From a virus (taxonomy: Duplodnaviria; Heunggongvirae; Uroviricota; Caudoviricetes), in IMG/VR virus record IMGVR_UViG_2617270939_000002: 34,039 nucleotides of DNA, one strand, 5' to 3'. Shown piece after piece: positions 6,015 to 23,814 of this stretch. The position numbers and the translations under genes are program-made. Position 1 is the stretch's first letter; each line of letters begins with the position of its first letter. The notes beneath the pieces are model-generated. The model had not been told where the DNA came from. It made no database searches and was given only the letters and a program-made list of their open reading frames with translations.

Positions 6015-6030
6015 CGTCGTGATGACCATT

Positions 6031-6092
6031 AAAAAAGCCACTCGAAAGTGGCCTTTGTGATGGCAATAAAAAACCGCCCGTAGGCGGTTATA
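6031..6092. terminator. Two tandem hairpins flanked by A/T runs (bidirectional rho-independent terminators)
   Basis: gccact-cgaa-agtggc (6037-6052) and ccgcc-cgta-ggcgg (6074-6087), each with A-run upstream and T-rich downstream. Confidence 0.5.
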
Positions 6093-6108
6093 TTCAGCAG
6101 GTCGCATG

Positions 6109-6273
6109 TTATCTGTGAATGACAAACAGCGATTTACATTTAGGGCAAAGTAACGCCTGTTGTTGGCGTACTTTCGTGGTCGAGTGTGTGGATTTATGTC
6201 CGCATATCGGGCACATGACAGTCGTATTGGCTGCAAGCCCAACACGCTGCATTGCATAATCGAAAAATGACAT
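6109..6273 (-). CDS. Small zinc-ribbon protein (54 aa, two CxxC pairs)
   Basis: Own translation MSFFDYAMQRVGLAANTTVMCPICGHKSTHSTTKVRQQQALLCPKCKSLFVIHR; ATG at 6273; terminators immediately downstream; below the 60 aa ORF-track cutoff. Confidence 0.45.
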   Translation of the reverse strand: MSFFDYAMQRVGLAANTTVMCPICGHKSTHSTTKVRQQQALLCPKCKSLFVIHR

Positions 6274-6370
6274 GGTGGTTAACCTTTCAATGAATGGGGC
6301 TTATTATACCATGCATAGCTCAATTATTAATCAATCATCATCGCATGCTTGATGCCATTTAACTTTGTCG

Positions 6371-6401
6371 CAGGCACTCAGTGAATGTCTGCTGTAATGC
6401 C
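6371..6401. repeat. 31-bp direct repeat copy 2
   Basis: caggcactcagtgaatgtctgctgtaatgcc. Confidence 0.6.
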
Positions 6402-6714
6402 TGCTCAGCCAAGTTGAAGCACACCGTGTTCTTTTGAATCAGAGAATGCAACAAACCCAGTGTATTCGGGGATAGTGTTCCGTCATCAGCATCAAATGCT
6501 GAAATGGTTGCGTGAAGAATCAAAAATGCTCCAAATCCCGCGCCGCTGCTGCCCCTCGATGGTCAGAATCGTCAAGGAGGACCCGTTAAAAGGTAAGCAG
6601 AAAATCTGTGGTTAGAAGTGAAGGCTTTGACAACGTTCTAAATTTTATGACAGAAATAAAAAAGCATTACCTTTCAAGATAATGCTTTTTCACTCGAACT
6701 GAGTCTTATAACAA

Positions 6715-6888
6715 TTAGATTAATGTGATTTTAATATCATAGCTTTCAAGCCCAGTCATTTTTTCACGAGCATTAAACTGGATATCGGAAACTTCTTTTC
6801 CTGTCTTTTTTTTGAGTTCAATAATTTTTTTTGTGATGAATTCAGAAATATCCGCTTCAGTTTTTCTTTTTAAATCTTCGACGTTCAT
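6715..6888 (-). CDS. GnsA/GnsB-family small protein (57 aa)
   Basis: Own translation MNVEDLKRKTEADISEFITKKIIELKKKTGKEVSDIQFNAREKMTGLESYDIKITLI closely resembles E. coli GnsA/GnsB; RBS GAGAGGT. Confidence 0.8.
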   Translation of the reverse strand: MNVEDLKRKTEADISEFITKKIIELKKKTGKEVSDIQFNAREKMTGLESYDIKITLI

Positions 6889-7092
6889 TGTTTACCTCTC
6901 TTGATCTCTAACGTATCAACGCCAGGCATGTTACATTCCCCGTAGAGCACTTGTATAAGCGCTGATATGTTTAAAAGATAGAATAGAAAGACTCAATTAT
7001 CAATAGTTTGCAGTACAATCTTCATGCAAAAGAGCTCGCGACCACACAAACCACTGTACTAAAATCCGGGTCGGTCACGAAACAACCAGATC

Positions 7093-7323
7093 TCATTTCA
7101 AAAGCTTCGAGGCTGCCTCGAGGATCTCTTCTGAACTGACATCACGATCAGAGGCTACATAAACTATTTTATGGTCTCCTGTCAGAGATGGAAATCCCGC
7201 TGACATCACGGGTAGGTGTGCTTTTTCCCCATTGGGAAACTCACGCATTATCGTAGTAATACCTTTCATTACGGTTACAACAACTGCTGGTTCTGCATTA
7301 AAAAAAACGATGACTTTTTTCAT
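7093..7323 (-). CDS. Hypothetical small protein (76 aa)
   Basis: ORF with MKK start; weak RBS; no family recognised. Confidence 0.4.
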   Translation of the reverse strand: MKKVIVFFNAEPAVVVTVMKGITTIMREFPNGEKAHLPVMSAGFPSLTGDHKIVYVASDRDVSSEEILEAASKLLK

Positions 7324-7396
7324 AATTTTACCGTGATGTCTCTTACAGAGATTGTCGGTTCAGCATACAAAAAAGGCTCCATAAGGAGCCTGAAAT

Positions 7397-7612
7397 TTAT
7401 TTTCTGAATTCTAACGAAGACTGACCAGAACGAATGTACAGTGCAATATTATCAAATGTAATCATTGTTGATTTGCAAAAAATACATTTTGCTCCGAAAG
7501 GATTTTTTTCAGTAACATCAAAGTTTGACGTTCGGTACTGAGATCCGTGGCAACACGGACATCTGAAGTGAATATTATTAGTAATAACAGTTACCTTATA
7601 CAGCCACGACAT
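7397..7612 (-). CDS. Hypothetical zinc-ribbon-like small protein (71 aa; CPCC...CIFC)
   Basis: ATG at 7612; two Cys pairs about 22 residues apart; overlaps 3' end of csp gene by 17 nt; weak RBS. Confidence 0.3.
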
Positions 7613-7808
7613 TAACTGCCGTGGGGCCTTTAGGTCCCTGTTCAACACTAAATTCAACTTCCTGATTCTCATTCAACGTCTTGAAATCATTACTCTGGAT
7701 AGCAGAGAAGTGAACAAACACATCTTTACTACCATCTTTTGGAGTGATAAAACCAAAACCTTTTTCAGGATTAAACCATTTAACTAAACCAGTCATTTTA
7801 TTAGACAT
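7596..7808 (-). CDS. Cold-shock protein, CspA family (CspB-like)
   Basis: [53 protein letters not shown]... ; long AT-rich upstream leader typical of csp genes. Confidence 0.9.
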
Positions 7809-8240
7809 AAACATTACCTTTATTGAGTAAGCCCTTGGGCAGAATGGTCCGAAAAAAAATTATCAGAGAGAAAAGCTAACAAGGAAATCTCAACAGGAAC
7901 AAGGAATAAAATTATTACAGCGACTGCTTCAGATAAATTCGTTACAAACCAGACATTCATTAACGCATGATTAACCAGACATAGCAAGGTTTAGTTTTGT
8001 AAGTAAATCTCAGTGGGTTTTGATCTTAAAAATTAATTTAAATAGCTTAAATCGAAAATTATGTCATGCTGCGTAAGACCTTTATCTATCACCCTAAGTT
8101 GTCAGGGATTTTGACTCAAGGAAGAGTCGTATTTCCTTCATAGTAAAAATTCACAAATTTATCCACGAAAACCGTCAACATCTTAATTTATAGAGCTATT
8201 ATTTTTCCTCTACGGTTCATTGTTAGTATTTTTACGGACT

Positions 8241-8345
8241 CATAAATCCGCTCACATGTCATTCCTGCTCGGTAGTTTTCATCAGCGCGTTCAGCATGGT
8301 ATCGAGCTTCTTCTGCCAGGCTTCCTGGCATGTCTACGAGCATTG
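8241..8345 (-). pseudogene. Orphan 3' fragment duplicated from the gene at 9196..9669 (about 105 bp, about 80 percent identical to 9237..9341)
   Basis: Direct sequence comparison of the two stretches (ctcaca(t/c)gtcattcctgc...atcgagcttcttctgc...). Confidence 0.55.
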
Positions 8346-8380
8346 TGGTGTCATGGCGGATGGAAAGTTATGTTGATTCG

Positions 8381-8584
8381 TTAGTTATCGAGCTGTAGAA
8401 CGCTATGCTCTAGCGACTCGGAATAGGCAATCAGCCCGGTGTACTCAGGGATAACCTCGCCATCATCCGCTTCGAACTCAGGGATTGTTCCGGTAGTGAT
8501 GGTATATTGTGGCTGGCCATCTTCTTTTGCGAAGGCAGCCAGGTCTTCAATCTGCTTAGCTGTAAGAACTACTGTAATGCTCAT
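8381..8584 (-). CDS. Hypothetical acidic small protein (67 aa)
   Basis: ORF only; SD very close to ATG. Confidence 0.35.
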   Translation of the reverse strand: MSITVVLTAKQIEDLAAFAKEDGQPQYTITTGTIPEFEADDGEVIPEYTGLIAYSESLEHSVLQLDN

Positions 8585-8968
8585 TCCTCAGTTGTTAAAA
8601 AGCCCCGCTATTGCGAGGCTTGATTGATTATGGCTAACGACTACATCGTAACGGTTATAAAAGAAGCTATTAGCCAACATGTGGTGTATGGTTGTTAACC
8701 GCCCACCAGGACAATCAACATGTCGATACTCAAAGATATCAAGATGCGTACTTTACGCCATGTGAAAAGTACTTGTCCTCATTGCTCCCGCCAGTCAAAG
8801 CACAGTCTGTCGAGAATAAAAAACAATATAACGTTAATTTGCCCCTTCTGTGGAAACATCTATCTTCCATCGGAAAGCAAACCAATAAAGTAACTGATTG
8901 ACTACCAAATAAAACTCATACTCTCAGAATGTGGCAAAGCAGACATAACCTTTTATTGTTGTTCTCAT

Positions 8969-9199
8969 TTAAGAGAATGTAACACCCAGAGTGGAGAGGT
9001 TTTTTTTCTTCTCCACAATACGGCGATCAAGTTCAGCCACTGCATGCGGGCGTATGGCATCAAGAAAGGCGTTATCCTGATAGGTAGACTGGATTGTCAC
9101 ACCAAGTCCGGCACCACTTTCCAGTATGCTTTTCTGAAGTTGTAGTTCTTTTATATCGTTATTGAGGTAATACGCTTCACTTAGGTTTTCTGCGTTCAT
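8969..9199 (-). CDS. Hypothetical phage protein (76 aa)
   Basis: ATGA start/stop overlap with upstream gene suggests translational coupling. Confidence 0.5.
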
Positions 9200-9669
9200 C
9201 TTCTAACCCTGTTGTTGTTTGACTGCCTCACTGAGTCGTAAATGCGCTCACACGTCATTCCTGCCCGGTAGCTTTCGTCAGATCGCTCAGCATAATATCG
9301 AGCTTCTTCTGCAAGGCGTCCGAGCATGTCGGCGAGCACTGCGGCGTCGGCTCCGGCTGTTTTGCTTCTGACGGCAGTGGCAAGATCTGCGGTGTGCTTT
9401 GCGGCGTCCAGGCGAGTGGCAAGCTTTGTTGCTTCGGTACGCAGCTGGTTAACAGTGGCAGACAGGCCAGCAGCAGTGGCAGCGGATTTACCGACAATAA
9501 TTGCCCAGTCACTCAGGCTTAACCCTGCAATTCTGTCGGCCAACATCCAGGACACCTCTTTTGCTGTTTTAGCTGTTTCGGCATATGCCTTCGCTGATAC
9601 ACCGCAGCCGGTCAGCGTGGTTCCTGTTCCATATGAAAGTCTGCTGTAAATGGTGCTCATTCTGGTCAT
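9196..9669 (-). CDS. Hypothetical phage protein (157 aa)
   Basis: ATG at 9669 preceded by GGAGGTGAGG; Ala/Thr-rich helical protein. Confidence 0.6.
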
Positions 9670-9912
9670 AGCCTCACCTCCGATTATTCGGATGGCGCTG
9701 TGTGTTTGAAAAGGGTCAGGCTTCACGGGCTGGATTTATCAACAAAGCACGTAGCGGATGATTCCCGTGAGCCTGAAATAGAAAAGGCCACGCAAATGCG
9801 CAGCCTGTAACCAGAAATCAATATTGTCTTTACATCAATTTTTCTTAAGGTTAAATTCTTCTGACAAGTTGATGAAAGACAACTTGAATATTAGCTATTT
9901 GTTCTCTGTTAT

Positions 9913-9939
9913 GCCCGCAACCCAATGCGGGCTTTTTTT
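9913..9939 (+). terminator. Rho-independent terminator (gcccgca-acccaa-tgcgggc followed by T7)
   Basis: Perfect 7-bp GC stem followed by ttttttt on plus strand in an otherwise gene-free interval. Confidence 0.55.
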
Positions 9940-10113
9940 CGCCCTGCTAAAAGTTCCACCGTTGTGAGCCTTTTTGCTATGCAATAATGGATGCGTGGTG
10001 CCGGGTGTCTCCCGGTGATCCTTTGGCTGACAACCCATGCCTCACGAACATTTCACAACGGGATATAGAAAAGGCCATGCATTTGCATAGCCCTGAAAGA
10101 TGTTTATGCTTTA

Positions 10114-10611
10114 TTAATTCGCTGGAATATCTGGCATGGCGCGATCCATAGAAGAGCTAATTAACGCCTTAATAGCGTTGCATACCTGATAAAATCCACC
10201 CAGCTGAGATGAGACAGAAAAACGGGAGACGTCGTCTCCTGAGCCTACTTCAGCATAAAATGATGAGTTCTCATACCAGAGTGAGATGCTTACGCCCTGC
10301 CTGTAGCCACCTGTTAGCGGAGAATCATCAAGAGTGGTTGCAATCACGAAATTCAAGTGGTAACGGCTGTCCATATTGAGTTGGGGGATTAAGACAGGAA
10401 AGAACTTCCCCTCCTCCTCCCAAATACCAATGTCCACATAAGGCCATCTTGTTCCGTCAGAACCAGTCCACTCACGAGATGTAAGATCAAGAGAACCTGA
10501 ATACTCTCGTAGTAGTTCGCTCGCCTTCTCCTGAAGTTTATCCTGTAACTTCCATTGCGCCTCGACCAGTTTAGTGCGTTTTTCTTTCAGATCCTTAAAT
10601 GTTAATTCCAT
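10114..10611 (-). CDS. Hypothetical phage protein (alternative start 10647)
   Basis: ORF; ATG at 10611 with GGAG upstream. Confidence 0.5.
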   Translation of the reverse strand: MELTFKDLKEKRTKLVEAQWKLQDKLQEKASELLREYSGSLDLTSREWTGSDGTRWPYVDIGIWEEEGKFFPVLIPQLNMDSRYHLNFVIATTLDDSPLTGGYRQGVSISLWYENSSFYAEVGSGDDVSRFSVSSQLGGFYQVCNAIKALISSSMDRAMPDIPAN

Positions 10612-10836
10612 GCCACTCTCCAGACAACTTTTGAAAGGAATCTGCATAGTAACTCACCCTGAAAGCACATGGTTATATTTCACTTACACTGAGTGCGAAA
10701 AGCAAAAACCCCGCCGAATGGCAGGGTTCATAATCAGTTTCATTTGGATGCACGTATCCATGATTAGAAGCATACACGACAACTTCGGACAAAATCAAGC
10801 CCTGCGTCACGAAAATGCTAAATATCACGCGTATCG

Positions 10837-11037
10837 TCACACAAACTGGTCATCACCTGGAAGCTGCATTGTGATTTTCACAATGGAGGTCTTAAAGCGC
10901 TGTTTTAGCTTAGTGAACTGTGAGGCCCAATCCATGCCCATGCCGTCAATGATCGGCTTCATTGGGGTATACGGCTCACCATTGCGATTCACAACATAGA
11001 GTGCATTTCCGTGGAACGGGACGGTAATTGTATTCAT
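10837..11037 (-). pseudogene. Antirepressor N-terminal domain fragment (P22 AR N-term/Ant-like), truncated after about 66 aa
   Basis: MNTITVPFHGNALYVVNRNGEPYTPMKPIIDGMGMDWASQFTKLKQRF resembles phage antirepressor N-terminal domains; much shorter than typical. Confidence 0.45.
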
Positions 11038-11318
11038 AGCGTTTTGCCTTACTTTGAGATGAACCTTTGCCGCACAGGAGATCAGCCCGTCGAGGCTCGC
11101 CAGCACTAACTGACTCCTCAACGGCTCATTCCAAAAGGTTGGGTTCGACGTGATTGAATGCGCTGCGGTGCGCGGTGAAATGCAGATACAAAAAAGCCCC
11201 GGTATTAAACCGAGGCTTATAATTCTTTCTCTTTTTCAGAGAATGCGGATTAAAGAACGTGCTTCATTGCTGGTTTCATCACAGCTTGGCACATATTTAC
11301 TACTTTCATTTCTCATTT

Positions 11319-11540
11319 TCAATTTATTTTTTTTGCACAGTTAGCCTGCACTGATTTATTGTGCACCAATATGTCCCGCTTCGTCTGCTTATCCAGCACG
11401 GCAATATCGTGTTCAGTGAGGTAGATAATGTCCACCCAGTCACAGGCTGTGTCCGTTAATTCAGGTTTTGCGGGTAAAGTTTTCGCGCAACTCACGGTCA
11501 ACATCGTCATCAGGAAGATGATTAACAGTTTGCTGTACAT
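11319..11540 (-). CDS. Lipoprotein, putative o-spanin (Rz1-like), overlapping 3' end of upstream gene in another frame
   Basis: Signal peptide MYSKLLIIFLMTMLTVSC with Cys lipobox; overlap architecture typical of spanin pairs; position downstream of endolysin. Confidence 0.45.
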   Translation of the reverse strand: MYSKLLIIFLMTMLTVSCAKTLPAKPELTDTACDWVDIIYLTEHDIAVLDKQTKRDILVHNKSVQANCAKKIN

Positions 11541-11730
11541 CCCTGGCTCCTTTTGTTGTCTCTACCCGGCGTTCAGCAACAGCTTCAGTAGCTGTTGCAC
11601 GTTCTTCAGTGCGCTGCTGATCGGCTTTGGCTTCCGCTTTGCTGGTGCCGCGTGAATGACCAATGCCAAAAGCACCAGCGATAGCTGCCATTATCAGGGC
11701 AGCAATACCGACGATTGTTTCTAATCCCAT
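11461..11730 (-). CDS. Small N-terminally membrane-anchored charged protein, putative i-spanin (Rz-like, short)
   Basis: MGLETIVGIAALIMAAIAGAFGIG TM segment then charged coil; GAGGT RBS; immediately after endolysin. Confidence 0.45.
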   Translation of the reverse strand: MGLETIVGIAALIMAAIAGAFGIGHSRGTSKAEAKADQQRTEERATATEAVAERRVETTKGARDVQQTVNHLPDDDVDRELRENFTRKT

Positions 11731-11737
11731 AGTGACC

Positions 11738-12367
11738 TCACACCAGCACAGACTTCGCCAGGTTAAACAGCGCGCGGCGTTTATCCAGCCCGTTACGTCC
11801 GCCATTGATAAGCAGCGTGACGCGCTCCACATCGCCTGAATGGAGCAGGCATCCGTGCGAGACGTAGAACCATGCGGCGGAGCGCGCAGCGTATTCATCT
11901 CGTTCCAGTAGTTCTGGATACGAAACCAGATCCAGTTTGAGAGCCTGGCCGCAACTGCGATAGTTGCTAAGCCCGGTGATTTGCTTAAGGCCTCGGCCGC
12001 GATATTTCCAGCCATCACCAGCAACCTGGTTGCCCAGGTTCTTTTTGCCCCACTCACCGCCGTAAACCAGATTGGCTATCGCTTTCTGATTTGCCGGTTG
12101 CGTTGCCGTTCTGCCGAGTGCGGCGGCCTGCTGCGCAGTAATGCGATGCTTGCCGAACGTAGGTACCAGGTTTTCTGCCGCATAGTTCAGGTTTTCCACC
12201 AGCCGGGTGAAACCGCCGGACTCATGGCCCATCTGCGCGATAAACATGGCCTGATCGAGCGGCGCGGTTATGCCGAATTCCTTCACTGCAGCATCGATAT
12301 GCGAAAACCAGCGCGAAGCGAGCCCGGCGCTAATGCCAGCCGCCTTTTGAAATTGTGATTGGTTCAC
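11738..12367 (-). CDS. Phage endolysin, glycoside hydrolase family 19 (chitinase-like lysozyme); GTG start (alternative ATG at 12415)
   Basis: MFIAQMGHESGGFTRLVENLNYAAE...GRGLKQITGLSNY motifs; GTGA overlap with upstream gene stop. Confidence 0.8.
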   Translation of the reverse strand: MNQSQFQKAAGISAGLASRWFSHIDAAVKEFGITAPLDQAMFIAQMGHESGGFTRLVENLNYAAENLVPTFGKHRITAQQAAALGRTATQPANQKAIANLVYGGEWGKKNLGNQVAGDGWKYRGRGLKQITGLSNYRSCGQALKLDLVSYPELLERDEYAARSAAWFYVSHGCLLHSGDVERVTLLINGGRNGLDKRRALFNLAKSVLV

Positions 12368-12645
12368 GTTGTGCTTTCCCCTGCTATTCTTGCGATGTTG
12401 CCACGTGCTCGCCATACAGCTATGCAGACAACAAGGTTGACGACCAACTCTCCGTAGTCGACCTGCACGTAATCACCATGCCAGATGCGGAAAGCGGTAA
12501 ACGCTGGAGCGAGGATCAGCCCATAGGCCAGAAACTCCATCAGACGGCGGCGCCGTAAGCTCCGCTTCCTGAAGAACATCAGGCGTATGGTGATGAGGAT
12601 GCATGCAACAGCGTTAATGTTCAGGATCAGTGTTTGCCACGTCAT
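12364..12645 (-). CDS. Small two-TM membrane protein in lysis cassette (holin partner/antiholin candidate)
   Basis: Hydrophobic segments plus RKRSLRRRR basic patch; ATGA coupling to the upstream holin-like gene. Confidence 0.5.
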   Translation of the reverse strand: MTWQTLILNINAVACILITIRLMFFRKRSLRRRRLMEFLAYGLILAPAFTAFRIWHGDYVQVDYGELVVNLVVCIAVWRARGNIARIAGESTT

Positions 12646-13046
12646 TCTTCCCCCTTCAATCCGGGTAAGTCTCCTGTCTTCGACCGTTTGAGGATGCGAG
12701 CCAGGATGGTGACAGAAACCGATGAAGCCAGCAGGGCACCCATAGCTGGAGATACCTTCACGGAAACTGGAGGAGAAAGGTGACTTAATGCCGCATTGAT
12801 TAGCGCAGCGATGATTTCAGATGCTGTTCCGGCGCAGTAGACTCCACCAATGAATGAGATGAGCGCGAACAGTATCTGCTTCCAGATTTTGTGGTCTTCA
12901 CTGCTCAGGACATAAAGAGCAGCCCCGGCAAGTGAGCAAAGCATTACAGCGGGTGTCGCTTCTGGAAACATCGTCGCGAAGGTGATTCCGGTAGTGCCGG
13001 CGGCCACGCCTGCCGTTACCGTTGCAGATATCGGTTCTGCGGACAT
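12642..13046 (-). CDS. Putative holin (134 aa, multi-TM with charged C-terminal tail)
   Basis: ATG at 13046 with GAGGGGG RBS; TM-rich with C-terminal KRSKTGDLPGLKGEE; first large gene of lysis cassette. Confidence 0.55.
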   Translation of the reverse strand: MSAEPISATVTAGVAAGTTGITFATMFPEATPAVMLCSLAGAALYVLSSEDHKIWKQILFALISFIGGVYCAGTASEIIAALINAALSHLSPPVSVKVSPAMGALLASSVSVTILARILKRSKTGDLPGLKGEE

Positions 13047-13156
13047 TTTGCCCCCTCTTATTGCTGTTGATCCTCTCAGAAGGTTGAGGGGAAACAAAAA
13101 AGGCCACCGTGAGGTGGCCTATATATGATTGAAATTTTTGATTTGGTAAGGCTTGA

Positions 13157-13351
13157 TCAGACCGGCAATGCCTTCGGCTTGCCCATGTGATATGTAACAA
13201 GGCTGCTTTTGCTGCCATCTTCCCAGACTGTAGAGCTCTCGGTGATCTTCAAAATCACCCAGCCTTTAGAAAGGCCCAAATTGACTTGCTCCACATCCTC
13301 TACCGTCCGTACTTCCTGAATTTTACTCAACAAGTTTTCATCTGCGCTCAT
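13157..13351 (-). CDS. Hypothetical small protein (64 aa), first ORF downstream of tR'-like terminator
   Basis: ATG at 13351 with GAGGG RBS. Confidence 0.4.
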   Translation of the reverse strand: MSADENLLSKIQEVRTVEDVEQVNLGLSKGWVILKITESSTVWEDGSKSSLVTYHMGKPKALPV

Positions 13352-13413
13352 CAACTGACCCTCAGTTAAAAAACACAACATAACAAACGCATTGAAGAAA
13401 AACCTTGCTGGAA

Positions 13414-13442
13414 ATAAAAAAACCCGCGCTGAGGCGGGTTTG
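13414..13442 (-). terminator. Rho-independent terminator on minus strand upstream of lysis genes (lambda tR'-like position)
   Basis: Minus-strand hairpin aaacccgc-ctcagc-gcgggttt followed by TTTTTTTATTT. Confidence 0.5.
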
Positions 13443-13829
13443 ATGTCGTGTAGGCGTAATATCCCACGATGGAAAGCATACAGGACATTTTTATGCAAAG
13501 TCAACACTAACGTGCAAAAAAGTGTCGCTACCGTAACCCGTACCAGACCCGCCACACATTCGCCACCAGACACATTAGCCAGGGCGTAAACCTTTTCTGG
13601 CTTGCCGGGCAGATGGGGCATAAAGGGCCGGAAATGCTGTTCCGCAATTACGGTAAATACCTGGCTGAATACGACGGGAAAACCGCCATTTCAGCAGCTC
13701 TGTAGCGTCGTGAGTATTTCAAAATGTTGGACGGAATCAGGACGTTAGAGGGACCACGATATGCACGTAAAATGCACTTGAGGCCTTTCAAAAAAGACAA
13801 AACATTAATATTCAATAGGTTAAGCATTA

Positions 13830-13864
13830 TTCGGACACGGGTTCAACTCCCGCCAGCTCCACCA
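13830..13864 (+). other. 3'-terminal fragment of tmRNA (ssrA)-like sequence ending in CCA; att core, not an intact RNA gene
   Basis: TTCGGACACGGGTTCAACTCCCGCCAGCTCCACCA matches the E. coli ssrA 3' end as I recall it (one difference); upstream sequence does not match the ssrA body. Confidence 0.7.
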
Positions 13865-13899
13865 AATATTGATGTACTGAAGTTCAGTAAAGTCTACTA

Positions 13900-13932
13900 A
13901 GCCCGCACAGCACAAGCTCTGCGGGCTTTTTT
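13900..13932 (+). terminator. Rho-independent terminator following the ssrA-like 3' end
   Basis: agcccgca-N12-tgcgggct followed by TTTTTT. Confidence 0.65.
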
Positions 13933-14030
13933 ACGTCTATTGTAGTCTAGTGAGAATTGCTGAGAACTACGAGTTATGGCACCCTGAATGGGACCCACGA
14001 AGATGGGTCCTAAAATCGAGGGTCCCAAAC

Positions 14031-15260
14031 ATGGCCAAAATCGCTAAGAAGCTCACTGACACTGAAATCAAAAGCACCAAACCTGCCGAAAAAGAGGTTA
14101 ACCTTTTTGACGGCGATGGTTTGCTGTTGCGAATCGCTCCCCTGGCGAAGGGAGGGAAGAAAAATTGGTATTTCAGATATGCAGTGCCTGTGACCAAAAA
14201 GCGAACTAAGGTGAGCTTAGGAACCTATCCTCACCTTACACTTGCGAAGGCACGAGCTTTACGTGATGAATACTTGTCGTTGCTTACAAATGGTATAGAC
14301 CCCCAAGTTCATAACAACCAAAAAGCCAATGCACTGAAAGATGCCACGGAACATACATTTCAAGCAGTAGCCAAGAAGTGGCTTGATGAGAAAGTCAAAA
14401 CGTCAGGCATCTCCCAAGATCATGCTAACGACATCTGGCGAAGCCTAGAGAGAAATATCTTTTCCACATTGGGTGATACCCCAATTAAGGAGATTCGCCC
14501 TAAAATGCTTAAACAGCATTTAGAACCCATAGAAAAACGAGGTGTCCTTGAAACACTTCGCCGCATCATATCCCGCCTGAATGAAATTTTCCGCTATGCA
14601 GCAACAGAAGAACTCATAGAATTCAACCCGGCAGACAACCTGGGGCAACGGTTCAGCAAGCCAAAAAAACAGAATATGCCAGCATTACCCCCTTCCGAAC
14701 TCCCTCGCTTCTTGGTTGCTCTAAACAATGCTTCTATCCGTTTGGAAACAAGGCTACTGATTGAGTGGCAACTTCTCACATGGGTTCGCCCAGGTGAAGC
14801 TGTTCGCACAAGATGGTCAGATATTGATATTGAAACTGGCATGTGGAACATCCCGGCGGAGTTTATGAAAATGAAGAAGCCTCACAAAGTTCCACTGAGC
14901 AAAGAAGCTTTGCGAGTTTTGGATTTAATGAAAGTCATCAGCGGGCATAGAGAGTGGGTGTTCCCCAGTATCAAAGCTCCACTCAATCACATGCATGAAC
15001 AAACAGCTAATGCGGCCATAATCCGTATGGGTTTCGGAGGTGAGCTTGTAGCTCACGGTATGCGATCCATTGCTAGAACGGCTGCTGAGGAGTCTGGCAA
15101 GTTTAGGACTGATGTCTTAGAAGCCGCCCTTGCCCACTCGAAGAAAGATGAAATAATTGCAGCCTACAATCGTGCAGAGTATCTCACTGAACGGGTGGTT
15201 CTCATGCAATGGTGGAGTGACTATGTTTCGTCTCAAAAATGCAAAGTTATTGCCGCATAA
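14031..15260 (+). CDS. Tyrosine integrase, P4 family (IntA-like), 409 aa
   Basis: MAKIAKKLTDTEIKSTKPAEKEVNLFDGDGLLL...WYFRY... N-terminus and C-terminal HGMRS...LAHS...Y catalytic region; adjacent to ssrA-type att. Confidence 0.9.
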   Translation: MAKIAKKLTDTEIKSTKPAEKEVNLFDGDGLLLRIAPLAKGGKKNWYFRYAVPVTKKRTKVSLGTYPHLTLAKARALRDEYLSLLTNGIDPQVHNNQKANALKDATEHTFQAVAKKWLDEKVKTSGISQDHANDIWRSLERNIFSTLGDTPIKEIRPKMLKQHLEPIEKRGVLETLRRIISRLNEIFRYAATEELIEFNPADNLGQRFSKPKKQNMPALPPSELPRFLVALNNASIRLETRLLIEWQLLTWVRPGEAVRTRWSDIDIETGMWNIPAEFMKMKKPHKVPLSKEALRVLDLMKVISGHREWVFPSIKAPLNHMHEQTANAAIIRMGFGGELVAHGMRSIARTAAEESGKFRTDVLEAALAHSKKDEIIAAYNRAEYLTERVVLMQWWSDYVSSQKCKVIAA

Positions 15261-15542: not shown

Positions 15543-17099
15543 ATGGCTAGCGAAAATGACAAAAATCATAGAGTTAGGGTCGCGCAGTACTTGAGGATGT
15601 CTACCGACCATCAGCAATATTCTTTACATAATCAGTCCGAATATATCAAAGATTATGCTGAAAAGAACAATATGGAAATCGCTTATACCTACGATGATGC
15701 AGGTAAGAGCGGAGTCAGTATCGTAGGCAGGCATTCTTTGCAGCAGTTACTTAGCGATGTAGAACAAAAGAAAATAGATATACAGGCTGTATTATTTTAT
15801 GATGTGAGCCGTTTTGGTCGTTTTCAAAATAGTGATGAAGCGGCATATTATTCCTTTCTATTTGAGAGAAATGGTGTAGATCTTATATATTGTTCCGAAC
15901 CTATACCCACTAAAGATTTCCCTTTAGAGTCCTCTGTTATACTGAATATAAAAAGATCTAGTGCTGCATATCACAGCAGGAATTTATCTGAAAAGGTATT
16001 TATAGGGCAAGTAAATTTAATAAAGCTTGGTTATCATCAAGGCGGTATGGCTGGTTATGGGCTGAGACGTCTTTTAGTAGACGAAAATGGCATAGCTAAA
16101 GAAATATTGAGTTTCCGCAAAAGAAAGAGTATTCAAACAGATAGGGTAATATTAATTCCGGGACCAAAAAATGAAATAAAAATTGTAAATAGAATATATG
16201 ATCTCTTTATAGATAATAACGTCCCAGAATTCATTATTGCTGAGAGATTAAATGAACAGAACATACCTGCAGAAAATGGAACATTATGGACTCGTGCAAA
16301 AATACATCAAATTTTGACAAATGAAAAATATATTGGAAACAACATATATAACAAAACCTCATCTAAATTAAAAAGTAGGCTTGTAAAAAACCCCAAACAT
16401 GAATGGGTTAGATGTGACAAGGCATATAAACCTATTATTTCAAAGAAAAAATACAATAAAGCTCAAGAAATAATTCAGCTCCGATCCATTCATTTGACTA
16501 ATGAAGATCTATTAGAAAAACTAAAACAAAAATTAGAATCTAATGGAAAACTATCAGGCTTTATCATTGATGAAGATGATACAGGCCCTTCATCTTCTGT
16601 TTATAGAACCCGATTTGGTGGTCTTTTAAGAGCATATACTTTGATTGGTTATAAGCCAGAACATGATTACAGCTATCTCAAAATAAATGAAGCACTAAGA
16701 TCATTTCACTCAGAGATAATTGAGGATTTTAAGGGTGAAATTTTAAAAAGTAACTGTCATATAGACGAGTATAAATATGCCCCAATGCTTTACATCAATG
16801 ATGAGTTTTTAATTTCCGTCCTTGTTACTAAATGCATACATATGAAATCAGGTAAACTTAGATGGAAAGTCCGGTTTGATAACTCACAGAAAGCAGACAT
16901 AACAATTGTTATACGAATGAATTCACAAAATATTTCACCTCTTGATTTTTATATCATACCAAAGATTGAAAACGAATATAATAAAATGTGCATGACGGAA
17001 ACAAACAACATTCGATTAGATCTCTATAGATTTGATAATCTTGATAAACTTCTACAAATTATTACTCGCATGAAAGTGAGGGAACTATATGCTGCCTGA
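15543..17099 (+). CDS. Large serine recombinase (resolvase/invertase catalytic domain plus recombinase and zinc-ribbon domains)
   Basis: VAQYLRMSTDHQ catalytic serine motif near N-terminus; 518 aa; AT-rich. Confidence 0.85.
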   Translation: MASENDKNHRVRVAQYLRMSTDHQQYSLHNQSEYIKDYAEKNNMEIAYTYDDAGKSGVSIVGRHSLQQLLSDVEQKKIDIQAVLFYDVSRFGRFQNSDEAAYYSFLFERNGVDLIYCSEPIPTKDFPLESSVILNIKRSSAAYHSRNLSEKVFIGQVNLIKLGYHQGGMAGYGLRRLLVDENGIAKEILSFRKRKSIQTDRVILIPGPKNEIKIVNRIYDLFIDNNVPEFIIAERLNEQNIPAENGTLWTRAKIHQILTNEKYIGNNIYNKTSSKLKSRLVKNPKHEWVRCDKAYKPIISKKKYNKAQEIIQLRSIHLTNEDLLEKLKQKLESNGKLSGFIIDEDDTGPSSSVYRTRFGGLLRAYTLIGYKPEHDYSYLKINEALRSFHSEIIEDFKGEILKSNCHIDEYKYAPMLYINDEFLISVLVTKCIHMKSGKLRWKVRFDNSQKADITIVIRMNSQNISPLDFYIIPKIENEYNKMCMTETNNIRLDLYRFDNLDKLLQIITRMKVRELYAA

Positions 17100-17985
17100 A
17101 AAAAATGAATTCCCAATAATTCAAATTGAGATTGCAAAAATAAAATTTCTTAACCCACGAACAAGAAATAAGTTAGTGCATGAAGAAATAAAGGAAAGCA
17201 TAAAAAAAAGAGGATTAAGCAAGCCTATAAGCGTAAGAGCTATTGATGAAGGCGATTTCAAATATGCTTTAATTTGTGGTCAAGGGAGAATAGAGGCTCT
17301 CGTTGCATTAGGTGAAACTATTATTCCAGCAATTATAAGAGATGTATCAGAAGAAGATGCTTACGTTATGAGTTTAGTTGAAAACATTGCAAGGAGAAGA
17401 CCACGTTCTAATGAGTTATTACAGGTGATTAAAGACATGAAAATCAGAGGACTTTCAGACTCCGAAATAAGTGAGATTACTGGATATTCATCGAACTGGG
17501 TGAGCAGTATTAATATGCTACTTGATAAGGGAGAGCATAAACTTCTCTCAGCAGTCGAACGGGGTAATTTGCCTCTGTATCTCGCAGTGCAATTTGCAAG
17601 ATGTGAAACTGAGGAAGCACAAGATATTCTTACCGAAGCATATGATAAAAAATTAATAAAAAGTCGGGACATTATAAAGATAAAACACATTCTAAATCAA
17701 AGAACAGTTGGGAATAAAGGTGCAAAAGCAGCCGGATTTTATTATCACAAACCATCAAAAAGGATGACTGCAGAGGAGTTGATTGAGCTTTATGAAAATA
17801 GTATCGCTGAACATAAATCTGTTTATAACAACTCAAAATTCATAAAAACCAACCTACTAATAGTAAATGAGATTTTTAACATCATAATGATGAATAAAAG
17901 CTTTCAACATATACTTGAACAAGAGAATCTTTCAGAACTACCATCTCAGATATTAACCCCAATAAACAAAGAGGTATTAAAATGA
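17089..17985 (+). CDS. ParB-like N-terminal domain protein with HTH (paralog 1)
   Basis: ISVRAIDEGDFKYALICGQGRIEALVALGETIIPAIIRDVSEEDAYVMSLVENIARR matches ParB/Spo0J N-domain pattern; 11-nt overlap with recombinase. Confidence 0.7.
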   Translation: MLPEKNEFPIIQIEIAKIKFLNPRTRNKLVHEEIKESIKKRGLSKPISVRAIDEGDFKYALICGQGRIEALVALGETIIPAIIRDVSEEDAYVMSLVENIARRRPRSNELLQVIKDMKIRGLSDSEISEITGYSSNWVSSINMLLDKGEHKLLSAVERGNLPLYLAVQFARCETEEAQDILTEAYDKKLIKSRDIIKIKHILNQRTVGNKGAKAAGFYYHKPSKRMTAEELIELYENSIAEHKSVYNNSKFIKTNLLIVNEIFNIIMMNKSFQHILEQENLSELPSQILTPINKEVLK

Positions 17986-18878
17986 TTCAGATACGTTTTG
18001 GCGATAATTTTATTTACCTGGAAACTAATAAGTTAATTCCATCTAAGGAATTATTAGAAAACGTAAAGCGAAGCCATAAATATCATCAAATAGTTACCTC
18101 TATCGAAAGCTTAGGTATTATTGAACCAATAATAGTATTCTATGACAAAGATAAAGATGTCACTAAGATACTTGATGGCCATTTAAGGGTTGAGGCTTTA
18201 AAAGACTTAGGTATAGAAAAAGCTCCATGTATACTTTCGAGCATAGATGATGCTTTCACTCCTAACAAACAAGTGAATCATATAAATGTAGTTGAAGAAC
18301 ATAGAATGATAATTAAGTCTCTGGCAAAAGTATCAATTGAAAAACTTAGTGCTGCTTTGGGCATATCTGTTGATGCCATAAAAGATAAAGCGAATGTGAT
18401 GAACGGCATAGATCCAAGTGTAATTGCGAAACTTTCTGATAAACCTATACCTAAGGCTACATTTGACGTTTTGAGGAAAATGAAGCCAATTCGCCAAATT
18501 GAAGCAGTCGGTACAATGATTAATTTTGATAATTATAGTAAAAAATTTGCAATGAGCATCTTGGATGCAACACCGGCATCGATGATAGTAAATAAAGGGA
18601 AAAACACTCCCTATAAAAAGGATATAAAAAAAACCATACTTCGTCTGGAACAAGAAATGGCAACAACTTCGGAAGAAACGAAAAAGCTTCAAACCGAGTA
18701 TGGTTCAGATATGTTGAAATTCGTTATAATCCAGTCATATATTAATAAATTACTTGGCAATTCTAAAGTTCTTCATTGGTTCTTAGAAAACGAGGTTGAT
18801 TATCTTAATGAGTTAAAAAGAATTTCTAGAATAAATTCTTTGGATGATAAGACTCTTACTGAAAACAGCAAGTCATAG
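17982..18878 (+). CDS. ParB-like N-terminal domain protein with HTH (paralog 2)
   Basis: IIEPIIVFYDKDKDVTKILDGHLRVEALKDLGIEKAPCIL...; ATGA overlap with paralog 1. Confidence 0.65.
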   Translation: MIQIRFGDNFIYLETNKLIPSKELLENVKRSHKYHQIVTSIESLGIIEPIIVFYDKDKDVTKILDGHLRVEALKDLGIEKAPCILSSIDDAFTPNKQVNHINVVEEHRMIIKSLAKVSIEKLSAALGISVDAIKDKANVMNGIDPSVIAKLSDKPIPKATFDVLRKMKPIRQIEAVGTMINFDNYSKKFAMSILDATPASMIVNKGKNTPYKKDIKKTILRLEQEMATTSEETKKLQTEYGSDMLKFVIIQSYINKLLGNSKVLHWFLENEVDYLNELKRISRINSLDDKTLTENSKS

Positions 18879-19532
18879 TCATGTTTTATATAGCCTAAAT
18901 AAACCAAGAAGTATACTTACACAACGACCTTCACGCCGAAGAAGCTGTCAGATACGCCAGCAACCAAAGCATTACGTTTAAGTGTCAGTCATTGATACGA
19001 AGGGATAACTGCGTATCAGCAGCCGGACATTGAGTCGAATAAAGGCTGGTAGAGAGGGACAGTTCTGTGTCACCGGGAGATTCGTCAGAAACATCAGCGG
19101 CAGAACAGATGAACCAGCAATTGGTAGTGCACAGAAAACTCTCCAGTATTTAATTATTCAACTTAACACTAAAAAAAATCACATATTTAATATCATAATT
19201 TTTCTTTGGTCTACGTATGCGAGAGTTATTGTGGCTTTAACCGGGTATTAGGAGTCGTTTCAGATAAAAGATGTTCTTCGATTCGACTGGACTTGGTAAT
19301 AGCAATAAGTAATCGTTAATATTGAAGGACGAAAGGCTACTTCAAAACAAAGTAACCTTTCCAATATTCCCATCTATGGGACAAGTGGTACATTAACTGC
19401 ACATAGTGCAGGATACATATGACATAAAACTTTTTATTTATGGCATACATTATAAATAACTTGTATTTTATGAATGTCAATAGGTTCTTGTTTAATACTT
19501 TTAAAATAATTAATTGATTGTTTTTATTATAG

Positions 19533-19552
19533 CTTCGCTTGTACAAGCGAAG
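19533..19552. repeat. Perfect 9-bp inverted repeat around a central TA dinucleotide (CTTCGCTTG-TA-CAAGCGAAG)
   Basis: Read directly; the 2-nt spacer argues for a DNA-level protein-binding or crossover site rather than an RNA hairpin. Confidence 0.6.
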
Positions 19553-19587
19553 ATCCTATTGTTCTTGAATGAATAATGCCAATTATA

Positions 19588-19631
19588 AGAGAAGCAAGGG
19601 CTAACTCTGCGAAGCCGCTGCGCTTGCTTCT
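19588..19631. other. GC-rich stem-loop (10-bp perfect stem gagaagcaag/cttgcttctc, 24-nt structured loop) inside an AT-rich ORF-free gap
   Basis: Read directly; followed on plus strand by a C/T-rich tract. Confidence 0.5.
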
Positions 19632-20612
19632 CCGGTTTCCCCTTGCTTTTCTTCCCTTCGGTTAGAAAAGAAAAACCTGGTCTTTCTCTTTCAATGTCTG
19701 CACATTTACTACAACAGATTAGACAATCGCAACTATTTATTTTATATGGAAAACTAGTGCTTAAATTGCAGCTCTCATTTTTATCAATCATTTTGCATAA
19801 GATAAATTTAAGTTTATATACCAAGGCATCCCGTTAGTTTTTACACGTAGGTAAACTAATAGTCAAAATCGAACTTTGAATTGTAGATTCTTTTAATTTA
19901 ACTCTATCCATCCGGTTAGAGGTAAAGGGAGGTTCATTTCAAGATATCATTGAACACAGTTCCAGATTAATATTATCAAAGAATTGAAAAAGATAATTAT
20001 TATTGCAATCCGTTAATGAGTCCACTTCAATTTTCCGTTCTTCTTACAGCGTTCTGAACAGTTAAACATATGATAGCTATTTAAAACCTTCGGTAATCTT
20101 ATCCAATACGGACTTGTCTGGTTTGATAATTACCAGAATCACACTATGCTCTTCAGTCTAATTTGTCAGTGATAAGGAGATCCGACCTATCGAACTTGCG
20201 TCATTTCCTAAATTTAGTGATTATAAATGTGGTTATCTATGGTCTTGTTGTGAAGATGTAGGCTGGAATTATCATGACGAACTGCAGCCTACATAAGCCG
20301 ACAGTACGGCTTTGATCGAATCATTAACTCTTTTATCATCTCAGGAACTGTGCAGACATTCCAGTTCAATTTTATAACGTTCAGTAAAAATTTAAAAAGG
20401 TGACAGCCCATGATCTCAATTGCAGACAATCAACCGTCTTTGATGATCATGGGTATATAAGTTTAACAAGATGTCTTCATCTCATGTGATTAAAATATAT
20501 AACAACACTAATTTAAAAATCGATTCTTAACTCTTCCAAAATATCACCCTTTATATTTCATTAAATTAATATCATAACTACACATACTAATTAGATAGTG
20601 TGTTAATTAAAT

Positions 20613-22739
20613 TCATCTAACTGACTCAATGATCTTTTGTTCTATAACTCGCCCACCTTGCTTTCCAGACAAAGGACCAATTAGTACTTTAAAGTCGGCA
20701 TAGTCATCTGCCTCAGGCCTATGCTCTATAATAACAATTGCATTGAATAATTTAGATTTTTGATATATAAAATTCAGCACCTTCGAAGCCGTCTCAGAAT
20801 CAAGTCCAGCGACAGGTTCATCAATAAACAATATTTTGTTTGTTTTTCTGGACTTAGATAGTATTTCACATAATTTTATTCTACGCATTTCACCACCTGA
20901 CAGGGACTGCGTTTTTCTATTAAGTTTCAAATGTGATATTCCAAGATAATGGATAGTTTCAAGAATAGTATTAATCTTAGTGTTATTAAAAAAAGAGCTT
21001 AACTCTTTCAACTCAGTATCATATACATCTATTATATTCATACCATTAATCTGAGACTTTACTTCATCTATATTGTGGTCAAACAGTTTACCCTCACATT
21101 TATGACATGATATGTAGATATCCTTTTCAAAACCCCTTTCATATTTTATCACGCCCTTACCTTCACAAACTTTACATCCACCAAGTTTGTTTGGAAGGAA
21201 ATACTCTATATCTAATTTTGTTATATCGGAGAAAAATTCTGCAATTAATTTATTCAAATCCGTGATAGTTGCGACAGTAGAACGTCCTGTATATGATGAC
21301 AATTTTTGGCTTATATAAATCGAATCGGTAAGACTACAAATAGCTTTAGCTAAAGATGATTTCCCCGATCCGGAGATTCCAGAAAAAACAGTAACACACT
21401 CTTTAGGGATACGTATATTTTGATTAATGATGTTATTTTTATTAAGCCCTTCAAAATAATAGTAATCAGATATATTATTTTTGGGATTGAGGTTCCTTTG
21501 CGGCTGAATTTTTTCTTTTTCACAAATTTCCCCACCAGAAGAACCAGCGTATTTACCAACATGGATTTGCTGATCAGCAAGATCTATGAAATACTGCGAG
21601 TGCTCTACTAAAATAACTGTGTTTTTTTCTGATAATTTTTTTAGCTTTTGAAAGATAACTTCAAAATCGACAGGGTTAATTTGGGATGATATTTCATCGA
21701 TAACAATCAGAATACCTGTTGTATTAGATGTTAAAAGCCTGCTGAAAATAAGTTTTTGTATTTCCCCCCCAGAAAGACTGGGAATTGAACGAGACAAATT
21801 TAAATATCCCAATCCCATATTATTTATTGAGGACAACACTCTAATTAATACTGAGTCACCTATAGTTTTTTTCAGGGTATTACATAATTCAGATATAGGA
21901 GATAGTAAAAATTCATCAAATGTAAATCCTAAAACATCAAGTTGGGCTGTTTCTTGGTTAATTCTGCTTCCATTACAAAATGAGCAATTTTCTTCCTTTT
22001 TATACTTTGAATTGTTTTGGCTCCGTCCTATATTCGAATTAGCAAAAGACATTACGCCTTTATAAAAAGCTCTTCTTTGCTTCGTTTTTCCTTTGTGTTT
22101 AAATCTAAAAGATAATTTCTCAGCGCTTTCTCCATATAGTATTAGGTTTTTCTTTTCAAGTGATAGTGAATCAAAAGTATCATCTACTTTTATATTATTT
22201 TTATCACAATAGACCATAAGTAATTGGTGATAATAATCAGATAACTCACCAGTCCGCCAACATAAAAATGGTTTTTGATCTAGTCTACATTTTTCATTAA
22301 TTAATTCAGATTCATCCACACTAACTATCTCGCCAAGGCCTAAGCAGTGTGGACATTCATTTCTATAATTGTTTATTTTTAATTTATCATAATTAGGTAC
22401 TGCTACGTTTCTTTTGATTTTTAAAGATGACAAAGCTTGAGCTATATTCAGATATGAATATATAGTTGAACGAGGGTTGTTATTTGTGTTTCTTTGTGGT
22501 ATCGCAACAGCGGGAATTAACCCACTGAAATTTGCAACTTTATAATCACTTTCATTCAAATAACCGTTTTCTACAGCATCAAACTCATCTTTGCATAATT
22601 GATAAATTGATGAAAATGCTAAAGAACTTTTTCCTGCGCCCGAACGGCCATAAATAGCGGTTATTGTATTAAATGGTATAGTAACATCTAAATTTTTTAA
22701 ATTATGGGTGGCTATTCCCTCAAAAATGATCTTATTCAT
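20613..22739 (-). CDS. UvrA-like double-ABC ATPase with zinc-finger insertions (708 aa)
   Basis: Two Walker A motifs (GRSGAGKSS, GISGSGKSS), two ABC signatures (LSGGEIQKL, LSGGEMRRI), several CxxC pairs; AGAGGA RBS; ATG overlaps upstream stop as ATGAATAA. Confidence 0.85.
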   Translation of the reverse strand: MNKIIFEGIATHNLKNLDVTIPFNTITAIYGRSGAGKSSLAFSSIYQLCKDEFDAVENGYLNESDYKVANFSGLIPAVAIPQRNTNNNPRSTIYSYLNIAQALSSLKIKRNVAVPNYDKLKINNYRNECPHCLGLGEIVSVDESELINEKCRLDQKPFLCWRTGELSDYYHQLLMVYCDKNNIKVDDTFDSLSLEKKNLILYGESAEKLSFRFKHKGKTKQRRAFYKGVMSFANSNIGRSQNNSKYKKEENCSFCNGSRINQETAQLDVLGFTFDEFLLSPISELCNTLKKTIGDSVLIRVLSSINNMGLGYLNLSRSIPSLSGGEIQKLIFSRLLTSNTTGILIVIDEISSQINPVDFEVIFQKLKKLSEKNTVILVEHSQYFIDLADQQIHVGKYAGSSGGEICEKEKIQPQRNLNPKNNISDYYYFEGLNKNNIINQNIRIPKECVTVFSGISGSGKSSLAKAICSLTDSIYISQKLSSYTGRSTVATITDLNKLIAEFFSDITKLDIEYFLPNKLGGCKVCEGKGVIKYERGFEKDIYISCHKCEGKLFDHNIDEVKSQINGMNIIDVYDTELKELSSFFNNTKINTILETIHYLGISHLKLNRKTQSLSGGEMRRIKLCEILSKSRKTNKILFIDEPVAGLDSETASKVLNFIYQKSKLFNAIVIIEHRPEADDYADFKVLIGPLSGKQGGRVIEQKIIESVR

Positions 22740-23814
22740 ACTTTCCTCTACACCAATCACATTCAGGATCACGTGGAACATCTTGGACGTTAAAAGATAA
22801 ACTTCTAAGACTAAATTCGACTCTTTTATTTTCTTGTTGCAAGTGATCTACTTTCCCGGCAAGTAATTTTATAGCGTCCAAGCTTGCAAGGCTTGCAGCC
22901 AGACCTGATAGTGGTGAAAATGAACCTAATTTTCGTTTTACCCGGTGCAATTTCTTCACATTAACAAGGTCTTTGCTATTTATTTTTCCTAAAAATAGGT
23001 TAAAACAATTAAAGCATGCTGACTTAAATGGAATAATTGTCTGACCGATAAGGGTTTGATGAAGATTATATCCCCCGCCAACTATATGTGGGATATTATG
23101 AATCATACTAAAGAGGGCGATTATTTTACTGGTGTAATCCACATTAGGTTCATCAGCGCAGTTTATTATCAAATCTATATCAGAGGGTAGAATATTTCTT
23201 TTAAAAAAATCATCATCGATAATGTCATTGATAATGTCAATCTTAATATCTGGAGATATCTTTTTCAAAGAGTTGAGTAACGCTATATTTTTATCAGAGT
23301 TAATTTCATCCTCGAAATAAAACTGACGATGTAAATTACTTATATCTACATTATCGTGATCTACAAATATTATCGAACCAACATTGCAATGAGCAAGATA
23401 CGTTGCCACATTACTACCGACTGCTCCAATACCTACAATCATTACTTTTGATTTTTTAAGATTAATTATACATTCTAAAACCTCACTGGTGGTATGACAG
23501 TAGTCTTCAAATGTATTGATCATTCTATATTGTTCAGTGACAAGCTCTGCAGGGTATTGGCAATCTTGATCGATAATTATATTGTTTTCATTCAAAAACA
23601 AAGCTAATTTTTCAAGTTGTTGAATATCGATTCCTGAATAATTTGCTACAATTTCTTGAAGAGAAGTTTGCCCATCAAACATCTTTAAGAGTTCAACTAT
23701 ATTTGGAAAGTTGATTTTTATTTTTATACTTTCTCTAATATTGGATTTAAAAAACTCTACAGTATCATCATTTACGACGATACCAATACTTTGTCGCAGT
23801 CTAAAATTATTCAT
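22732..23814 (-). CDS. E1-like adenylyltransferase (ThiF/MoeB/MccB family) with PqqD-like N-terminal peptide-binding domain, paralog B (alternative GTG start at 23832)
   Basis: KVMIVGIGAVGSNVATYLAHCNVGSIIFVDHDNVDISNLHRQ nucleotide-binding motif; N-terminal LLKMFDGQTSLQEIV; C-terminal CFNC...CDWC. Confidence 0.8.
   Translation of the reverse strand: MNNFRLRQSIGIVVNDDTVEFFKSNIRESIKIKINFPNIVELLKMFDGQTSLQEIVANYSGIDIQQLEKLALFLNENNIIIDQDCQYPAELVTEQYRMINTFEDYCHTTSEVLECIINLKKSKVMIVGIGAVGSNVATYLAHCNVGSIIFVDHDNVDISNLHRQFYFEDEINSDKNIALLNSLKKISPDIKIDIINDIIDDDFFKRNILPSDIDLIINCADEPNVDYTSKIIALFSMIHNIPHIVGGGYNLHQTLIGQTIIPFKSACFNCFNLFLGKINSKDLVNVKKLHRVKRKLGSFSPLSGLAASLASLDAIKLLAGKVDHLQQENKRVEFSLRSLSFNVQDVPRDPECDWCRGKYE

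Follow-up and report, generated by a model that had tools for sequence, protein, structure and literature searches.

A displaced ssrA 3' end as a probable hybrid attachment site between a lambdoid prophage remnant and an IntA/P4-type island

Elements that integrate into the 3' end of a gene each bring a copy of that end; the gene is regenerated at one end of the insertion, and the displaced fragments mark the element boundaries (PMC4383910). Tandem arrays have been catalogued, 125 with at least two members and 4 with at least three, and the most enriched target is ssrA, the gene for transfer-messenger RNA (tmRNA) (PMC4383910). That tandem prophages share an attachment (att) site is the traditional view, and ssrA is given among the prophage sites of Escherichia coli that produce Shiga toxin (PMC8112680). 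The DNA described here, the Caudoviricetes record IMGVR_UViG_2617270939_000002 (34,039 nt in full, referred to as the window), contains a 35-nt copy of the ssrA 3' end between a lambdoid prophage remnant on the left and an integrase-bearing island, called island B, on the right. This stretch is very probably a hybrid attachment site that arose as two elements integrated, site-specifically, into the tmRNA gene at its 3' end. The ssrA locus is reportedly covered in Williams' 'Traffic at the tmRNA gene' (2003). That ssrA carries tandem arrays is established knowledge, and the window represents a well-documented, ordinary outcome of site-specific integration.

Among described systems, CP4-57 at ssrA of strain K-12 resembles the right-hand element: its IntA-type integrase gene comes right after ssrA, and at its boundary the ssrA 3' end recurs as a short direct repeat. 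The integrase encoded in the window is 48% identical to IntA (E = 6e-137) and passes the same NCBIfam model (NF007246; 444.6 bits vs a cutoff of 434). In contrast, the K-12 repeat, the 14-nt psaA, is the degenerate right-end repeat of a single island (CCGCCAGC-CCACCA), while the copy in the window lies between two elements as a near-perfect 35-nt hybrid, in all likelihood, of phage attP and island left arm. Island B also has other cargo, including genes for a relaxase, a serine recombinase and ParB-like proteins. On the phage side, the closest counterparts are the free phage LMessi (PP925823.1), which matches the remnant in integrase type, attP arms and a 35-nt ssrA-like core with the A allele (see below), and a prophage in strain E94, which is a full version of the same tandem layout with int intact. 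Compared with these two, the copy in the window is integrated, only ∼15 kb long, and lacking most of int, along with the whole early region, Q, and the genes for head and distal tail. The regenerated gene, displaced fragments and arrays of two or three elements treated by Islander recur at this locus, but the Islander tandem rule needs an integrase and a fragment for each member, and the middle element of the present array, having no integrase, would be merged with a neighbor or missed.

The locus is a clean, fully reconstructed instance of a known process and leaves current understanding unchallenged. For annotation it provides base-precise boundaries for two mobile elements and explains a 35-nt tmRNA-like match within phage DNA. 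Here, moreover, two integrase families with no relation to each other use one and the same tmRNA-gene end, each crossing over at a point of its own, and the array reached three elements in one lineage.

The 35-nt fragment and its four attachment sites

The fragment (TTCGGACACGGGTTCAACTCCCGCCAGCTCCACCA; window 13830–13864, + strand) corresponds to the final 35 nt of the intact ssrA genes annotated in E. coli C and in an NCTC genome described below, with a single mismatch, A instead of G at 13837, and terminates in the CCA at 13862–13864. Its 26-nt core (GGGTTCAACTCCCGCCAGCTCCACCA) is present as a single copy in the window and has no match in any of 100 dinucleotide-preserving shuffles. NCBI has two independent assemblies with this junction (GCA_000704025.1 and GCA_900450495.1), and related junctions are found in complete genomes. 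Chance similarity or a chimeric assembly can thus be set aside with near certainty.

Only the end of the gene is present. No tRNA or tmRNA is detected in the window by ARAGORN, and no tmRNA reaches the Rfam gathering threshold there, the sole Rfam match being a cspA thermoregulator elsewhere in the window. In a permissive Rfam scan of 13300–14100 the tmRNA model (RF00023) scores 30.2 bits against a gathering value of 47, skips 306 model positions, and aligns just the T-arm, the acceptor 3' strand and the CCA. The tRNA-like domain, tag reading frame, pseudoknots and gathering-level score of a tmRNA gene are therefore not found in the fragment. What it does display are the features of a displaced tDNA or tmRNA-gene fragment: it is the 3' end of the target gene, lies in the same orientation, ends at CCA, and has integrase sequences close by, the gene of island B 167 nt downstream and a phage int stub ending 125 nt upstream. 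A preliminary description, made from the letters of the window alone, had already recognized an ssrA 3' end closing in CCA, with phage DNA rather than the tmRNA body before it and a terminator and P4-family integrase after it. All of this is borne out, and the coordinates were exact, 13830 being the first base of the tail and 14031 the integrase start codon. The sequence upstream consists of an integrase C-terminal stub, an attP arm and a lysis cassette, and no tmRNA body is found immediately upstream of 13830.

A functional small RNA (sRNA) gene made up of fragment and terminator, similar to IsrM, or a truncated but active piece of tmRNA, would be a very improbable explanation of the stretch. 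The Rfam IsrM model (RF02763) does align to 13855–13932 in the permissive scan with E = 1.5e-11, but its 46.3 bits compare with a gathering value of 376, 272 of its 329 positions are skipped, and just the ssrA end and the terminator are aligned. The tmRNA match is to the 3' end only, and there is no + strand promoter-like site in 13100–14100. Lacking such a site and any substantial RNA-family match, the stretch is a scar of recombination that shows no sign of having a separate function. Both the IsrM and the tmRNA_permuted matches were rejected as RNA genes on score and coverage. As a separate observation, the IsrM positions that do match, the first 8 and last ∼50 of the model, correspond to the ssrA end and the island-borne terminator, which suggests a homologue of this ssrA terminator at the end of Salmonella IsrM.

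The window belongs to contig JNQD01000103.1 (GCA_000704025.1), to which it is 100% identical over 12,426 bp (window 1–12426). A second genome, in the 5.2-Mb contig UGGI01000001.1 (GCA_900450495.1; the NCTC genome), is 99.987% identical to window 1–23351, with 3 mismatches, and contains the intact ssrA that was looked for beyond the start of the window. This 363-nt gene encodes the tag ANDENYALAA, has the G allele, lies beside smpB-ratA-rnfH-bamE-recN, and is followed by CTTTTGATAGG...; its CCA is 1,198 bp left of the equivalent of the window start. The same 26-nt core occurs at this gene and again 15,062 bp downstream, at the junction seen in the window, forming a direct repeat with the intact gene at the other end of the element; ssrA is accordingly not at some unrelated locus free of att-like repeats. 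Two Logan assemblies (L018 and L019) have the same left end as the NCTC genome.

With this far end, all four sites of the Campbell model are recovered. In attP, from phage LMessi, the P arm is followed by the core with A at 13837 and then by CTTTTGATAGG...; in attB, from E. coli C, the ssrA body leads to a G at this position and then to AATATTGATG...; in attL, from the NCTC genome, the ssrA body and G are joined to CTTTTGATAGG...; and in attR, from the window, the P arm and A are joined to AATATTGATG..., so that the complete site reads P arm, TTCGGACaCGGG...CCACCA, AATATTGATG.... An attP was also assembled in silico by joining the int tail, arm and core of the window to the far arm. The resulting 743-nt sequence matches LMessi contiguously, with 100% coverage and 93.8% identity, so the two arms rejoin into an attP that exists in a free element. 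The block identical in all four sites is 27 nt long (Table 1). Since the A/G difference to its left travels with its own left flank, the phage strand exchange took place to the right of 13837, within 13838–13864. This means that 13830–13837 are phage DNA, that A13837 is the phage allele, and that only the DNA to the right of the crossover, somewhere in 13838–13864, is the original ssrA end. The earlier statement that the original 3' end had been displaced is correct for that part, but not for 13830–13837, which came from the phage attP.

The right-hand side is equally well defined. E. coli C is 99.9% identical to the window from 13830 onward, and its alignment runs without differences across the junction from 13838, as could be seen when the junction was compared with this reference. 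Its gene order is smpB, ssrA, the same terminator, integrase WP_001062342, a serine recombinase and ParB genes, and the terminator, identical in sequence, directly follows the intact ssrA. When 13300–14500 was searched by megablast against 5,426 complete E. coli genomes, many matches of 99.9% started exactly at 13830, with ssrA annotated beneath. The island B integrase has the domains Arm-DNA-bind_3 (PF13356, DUF4102; 5.6e-23), Phage_int_M (PF22022; 3.4e-24) and Phage_integrase (PF00589; 8.1e-20). It is 35% identical to P4 Int over the full length (E = 3e-86), and the label 'P4-family' therefore holds.

Order of arrival and a third element

The proposed history would begin with an LMessi-like lambdoid phage, the attP of which had a 35-nt copy of the ssrA end beside the 3' end of int. 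The phage integrase would have recombined this copy with ssrA inside the 27-nt identity block, making ssrA whole again at attL, the far end of the prophage, and leaving the hybrid copy at attR, joined to the DNA then downstream. That DNA was most probably the left arm of a resident ssrA island, with its terminator and IntA/P4-type integrase gene, in which case the same 35 nt would serve both as attR of the phage and as attL of island B. Later deletions would have shrunk the prophage to ∼15 kb, one of them fusing the last 61 codons of int to DNA past Q. In the source lineage, a further IntA-type island would have entered the rebuilt ssrA (or, less simply, would have been kept in it), with its crossover in CCACCA.

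The preliminary description had the phage integrating upstream of a pre-existing ssrA island. The integration itself is supported by the four recovered sites, while the prior presence of the island is inferred from how the two arms are distributed. The island B arm is found beside intact ssrA in 532 records with a best match of at least 99% (ssrA is annotated in 9 of 30 among the matches listed), whereas the phage arm occurs at that junction in 8 of the 5,426 complete genomes; a common island arm and a rare phage arm favor the arrival of island B first. In the reverse order, the phage would have entered an ssrA with other DNA downstream, and island B would later have used the displaced copy at attR. 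The final sequence would be identical under either order, and the attR copy, which keeps 35 nt of ssrA-like sequence including CCACCA, is a possible secondary target. This order is nevertheless unlikely, given that the island arm is widespread after intact ssrA at 99.9% identity and the phage arm there is rare, and that the sole insertion with a readable target, island A (see below), lies on the intact-ssrA side of the remnant and not at the displaced copy.

The source contig shows island A. In place of the ssrA of the NCTC genome, this contig has GGGACGCCAGC-CCACCA joined to the same phage arm and preceded by the right end of an island. The DNA to the left of this degenerate att copy encodes an ankyrin protein, SIR2 with an ATPase, an Mrr-like nuclease and a DUF4365-TPR protein, and matches, at 100% identity, the right end of a ∼31-kb island at ssrA in strain 2273-PO3. 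The latter island has its own IntA-type integrase and closes with the same degenerate repeat before ypjA, as do the IntA-type islands of NCTC9100, 873.10 and K-12 (annotated in K-12 as the pseudogene psaA) with respect to the repeat. As the T-deletion stays on the island side (GCCAGC-CCACCA), islands of this type cross over in the last 6 nt, CCACCA, at 13859–13864. The order in the source lineage is ssrA (not seen), island A, degenerate att, remnant, 35-nt att and island B, and the intact ssrA of the source strain is expected more than 9 kb further left, beyond this third island. The remnant, with all of its deletions, is common to both left-end states, so the gain or loss of island A came later than the formation of the remnant; the two states of otherwise identical remnants indicate that recombination at the core continued after that time. 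The 40 nt that follow the degenerate att in 873.10 were considered as a shared phage arm and rejected, as they have just loose similarity, and no identity, to the ypjA-proximal flank.

Near-identical remnants with two different left neighbors could also be produced if the array had been imported whole, or reshuffled by homologous recombination between strains, after integrations that happened elsewhere. The ssrA locus is highly mosaic, with differing cargo in the same slots and other tandem arrays. This explanation is nonetheless improbable: the left-end difference falls exactly at the att core and includes the island-type T-deletion, a signature of site-specific recombination. The nature of the 35-nt site would in any case be unchanged by it.

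Some points weigh against the history preferred here, in which the phage entered ssrA upstream of a resident island B and left a hybrid att site. No tmRNA gene is found in the 9.2 kb readable to the left of the window in the source contig, which runs ∼13 kb in that direction. The early arrival of island B is suggested by distribution, and any present-day recombination activity of the att copies would likewise be a prediction from sequence. One copy of a 17-nt motif (ATGCACGTRAAATGCAC) is present in each arm (in the window arm and in the far arm in the source contig), both oriented alike, and E94 has one at the corresponding place; position and copy number make it a candidate arm-type Int site.

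The loss of its integrase need not mean that the remnant is dead. It is bracketed by ssrA-end repeats usable by IntA-type integrases, which cross over in CCACCA, and a conceivable but doubtful extension is that it could be excised or transferred together with island B, which has a relaxase, or with island A. If so, a mobilizable island would be accreting phage genes (lysis, cold-shock and DinI) and mobilizing them in cis. Tandem accretion and cis-mobilizable elements (CIMEs) are known from the ICESt1-type elements of Streptococcus, where, as here, att sites flank an element that has no recombinase of its own and next to which lies a related element with an integrase. In contrast to CIMEs, the IntA/P4-type integrases neighboring the remnant are unrelated to the lost phage integrase (26% identity over 205 aa). 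With a different integrase and a different crossover point in the core, cis-mobilization is only a possibility.

Gene content of the remnant and island B

The positions of the features are given in Table 1.

Table 1. Features at and around the ssrA-derived junction (window coordinates unless stated otherwise)
Feature	Position	Strand	Remarks
Degenerate att copy (GCCAGC-CCACCA)	source contig (L016) 13624–13637		∼1.2 kb left of window start; same type as K-12 psaA
Lambdoid remnant, rest within window	1–13521	-	extends 1,198 bp left of window to the other att site
gpV-like tail tube gene	789–2426	-	remnant
gpU gene	2434–2832	-	remnant
Nu1/portal fusion open reading frame (ORF)	3249–3971	-	240 aa; matches both lambda Nu1 and portal Pfam families
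Cold-shock/GnsB/YnfU moron block, second lysis relic and DinI module	within 1–13521	-	remnant
GH19 endolysin gene	11738–12415	-	after holins
Two holin genes	12642–13097, 12364–12645	-	remnant
Deletion junction, GTGT(A)CGCTA microhomology	13522–13530		int codon ∼330 fused to just past Q; pattern ACGTGCAAAAAAGTGTCGCTACCGTAACCC
Phage tyrosine integrase stub	13523–13705	+	last 60 residues and stop (61 codons); frame upstream full of stops
Phage attP P arm	13706–13829	+	between int stop codon and core; contiguous with core in LMessi
Candidate arm-type Int-binding motif ATGCACGTAAAATGCAC	13761–13777		within P arm
Displaced ssrA 3' fragment	13830–13864	+	35 nt: T-arm 3' half, acceptor 3' strand, CCA; very probably hybrid att, attR for the remnant and attL for island B
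Block identical in attP, attB, attL and attR	13838–13864	+	27 nt; bounded left by A/G at 13837, right by divergence after CCA
Rho-independent terminator	13899–13932	+	hairpin and T-run; on island B left arm; serves ssrA in island-only strains
Island B tyrosine integrase, IntA/P4 type	14031–15260	+	409 aa; assigned by Pfam, NCBIfam, identity to IntA and P4 Int
Island B body, mobilizable island	15543–34039	+	right end outside window
Large serine recombinase	15543–17099		island B
Two ParB-like genes	17089–18878		island B
Low-GC cargo	19.5–25 kb		island B
Ankyrin gene	27157–28110		island B
MobA/VirD2-type relaxase	28694–29953		island B

The int stub is 95% identical to residues 356–414 of the 415-aa Int of LMessi and also matches the integrase of the prophage at ssrA in E94. 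It covers only positions 128–165 of the 172 in the PF00589 profile, and, with 60 C-terminal residues left, does not retain all the catalytic residues of a complete integrase. Cut down to the last 61 codons of int, the remnant is unable to excise by itself and would need Int and Xis supplied in trans. In intact relatives, the Q antiterminator gene (PF03589) precedes the same late block, and in one of them (L013) homology to the window begins 16 bp past the Q stop codon. The homologies to int and to the late region overlap in the microhomology at the junction, which implies that a single deletion removed Q and all that lay between it and int codon ∼330, xis, immunity and replication included. 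This unique int'/late-region junction has 0 exact matches in a species-representative genome collection, as expected of a set with one genome per species. To the left of 13530 the lambdoid late region follows on the - strand, with a 64-aa ORF, the two holins and the GH19 endolysin. Further left, Nu1 and portal are fused and the gpV-like gene directly adjoins the DinI module, so head and distal tail genes are also gone. Without Q, and with its head and tail genes incomplete, the left element does not amount to a functional lambdoid prophage and is a ∼15-kb remnant. The 'lambdoid phage' of the preliminary description is right as to type, but what is left of it has no working integrase.

Just past the expected place of Q, at 13410–13504 (- strand), a promoter-like TTGACT-18-TATGCT is followed by a strong terminator (13441–13420 and a T-run). 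The pair resembles the pR'/tR' late-promoter layout of lambdoid phages, left without its antiterminator. Upstream of the prophage cold-shock-domain gene, 7537–7953 (- strand) contains a full-length Rfam cspA thermoregulator (141 bits vs a gathering value of 78), and the same block includes YmcF-like, GnsAB and YnfU genes. At the left end (window 1–654), a module of DinI, a 110-aa protein, hemerythrin and a second DinI also closes lambdoid, P2-like and Mu-like prophages that occupy several different chromosomal sites, and the 110-aa protein (window 1–333) is the same across those prophages. The module looks like a widely shared moron cassette that adjoins att sites. The product of the longer ORF at 1–582 (- strand) matched no called gene, while the shorter 110-aa call did.

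Island B sits at ssrA in strains such as NCTC9100. In the window, its cargo at 20613–24931 (- strand) has a GC content of 31–33% and consists of a 722-aa ABC-type ATPase (PADLOC mad3, 2.8e-44) as well as two ThiF/E1-like ORFs; as a set, these genes look like a candidate defense system. Elsewhere the same slot contains NACHT and RelA/SpoT genes (NCTC9100) or a type I restriction-modification system (E94), and it appears to be a cargo hotspot. The match of a 181-aa ORF at 25611–26156 (+ strand) to a type II restriction enzyme is confined to the C-terminal half (profile positions 156–329 of 331), and the ORF is probably a truncated relic. Between the terminator and the start codon of the island integrase, at 13982–14034, GGGWCCC repeats make up an imperfect 19-nt inverted repeat; for the IntA-type integrase they may serve as an operator or as arm-type sites.

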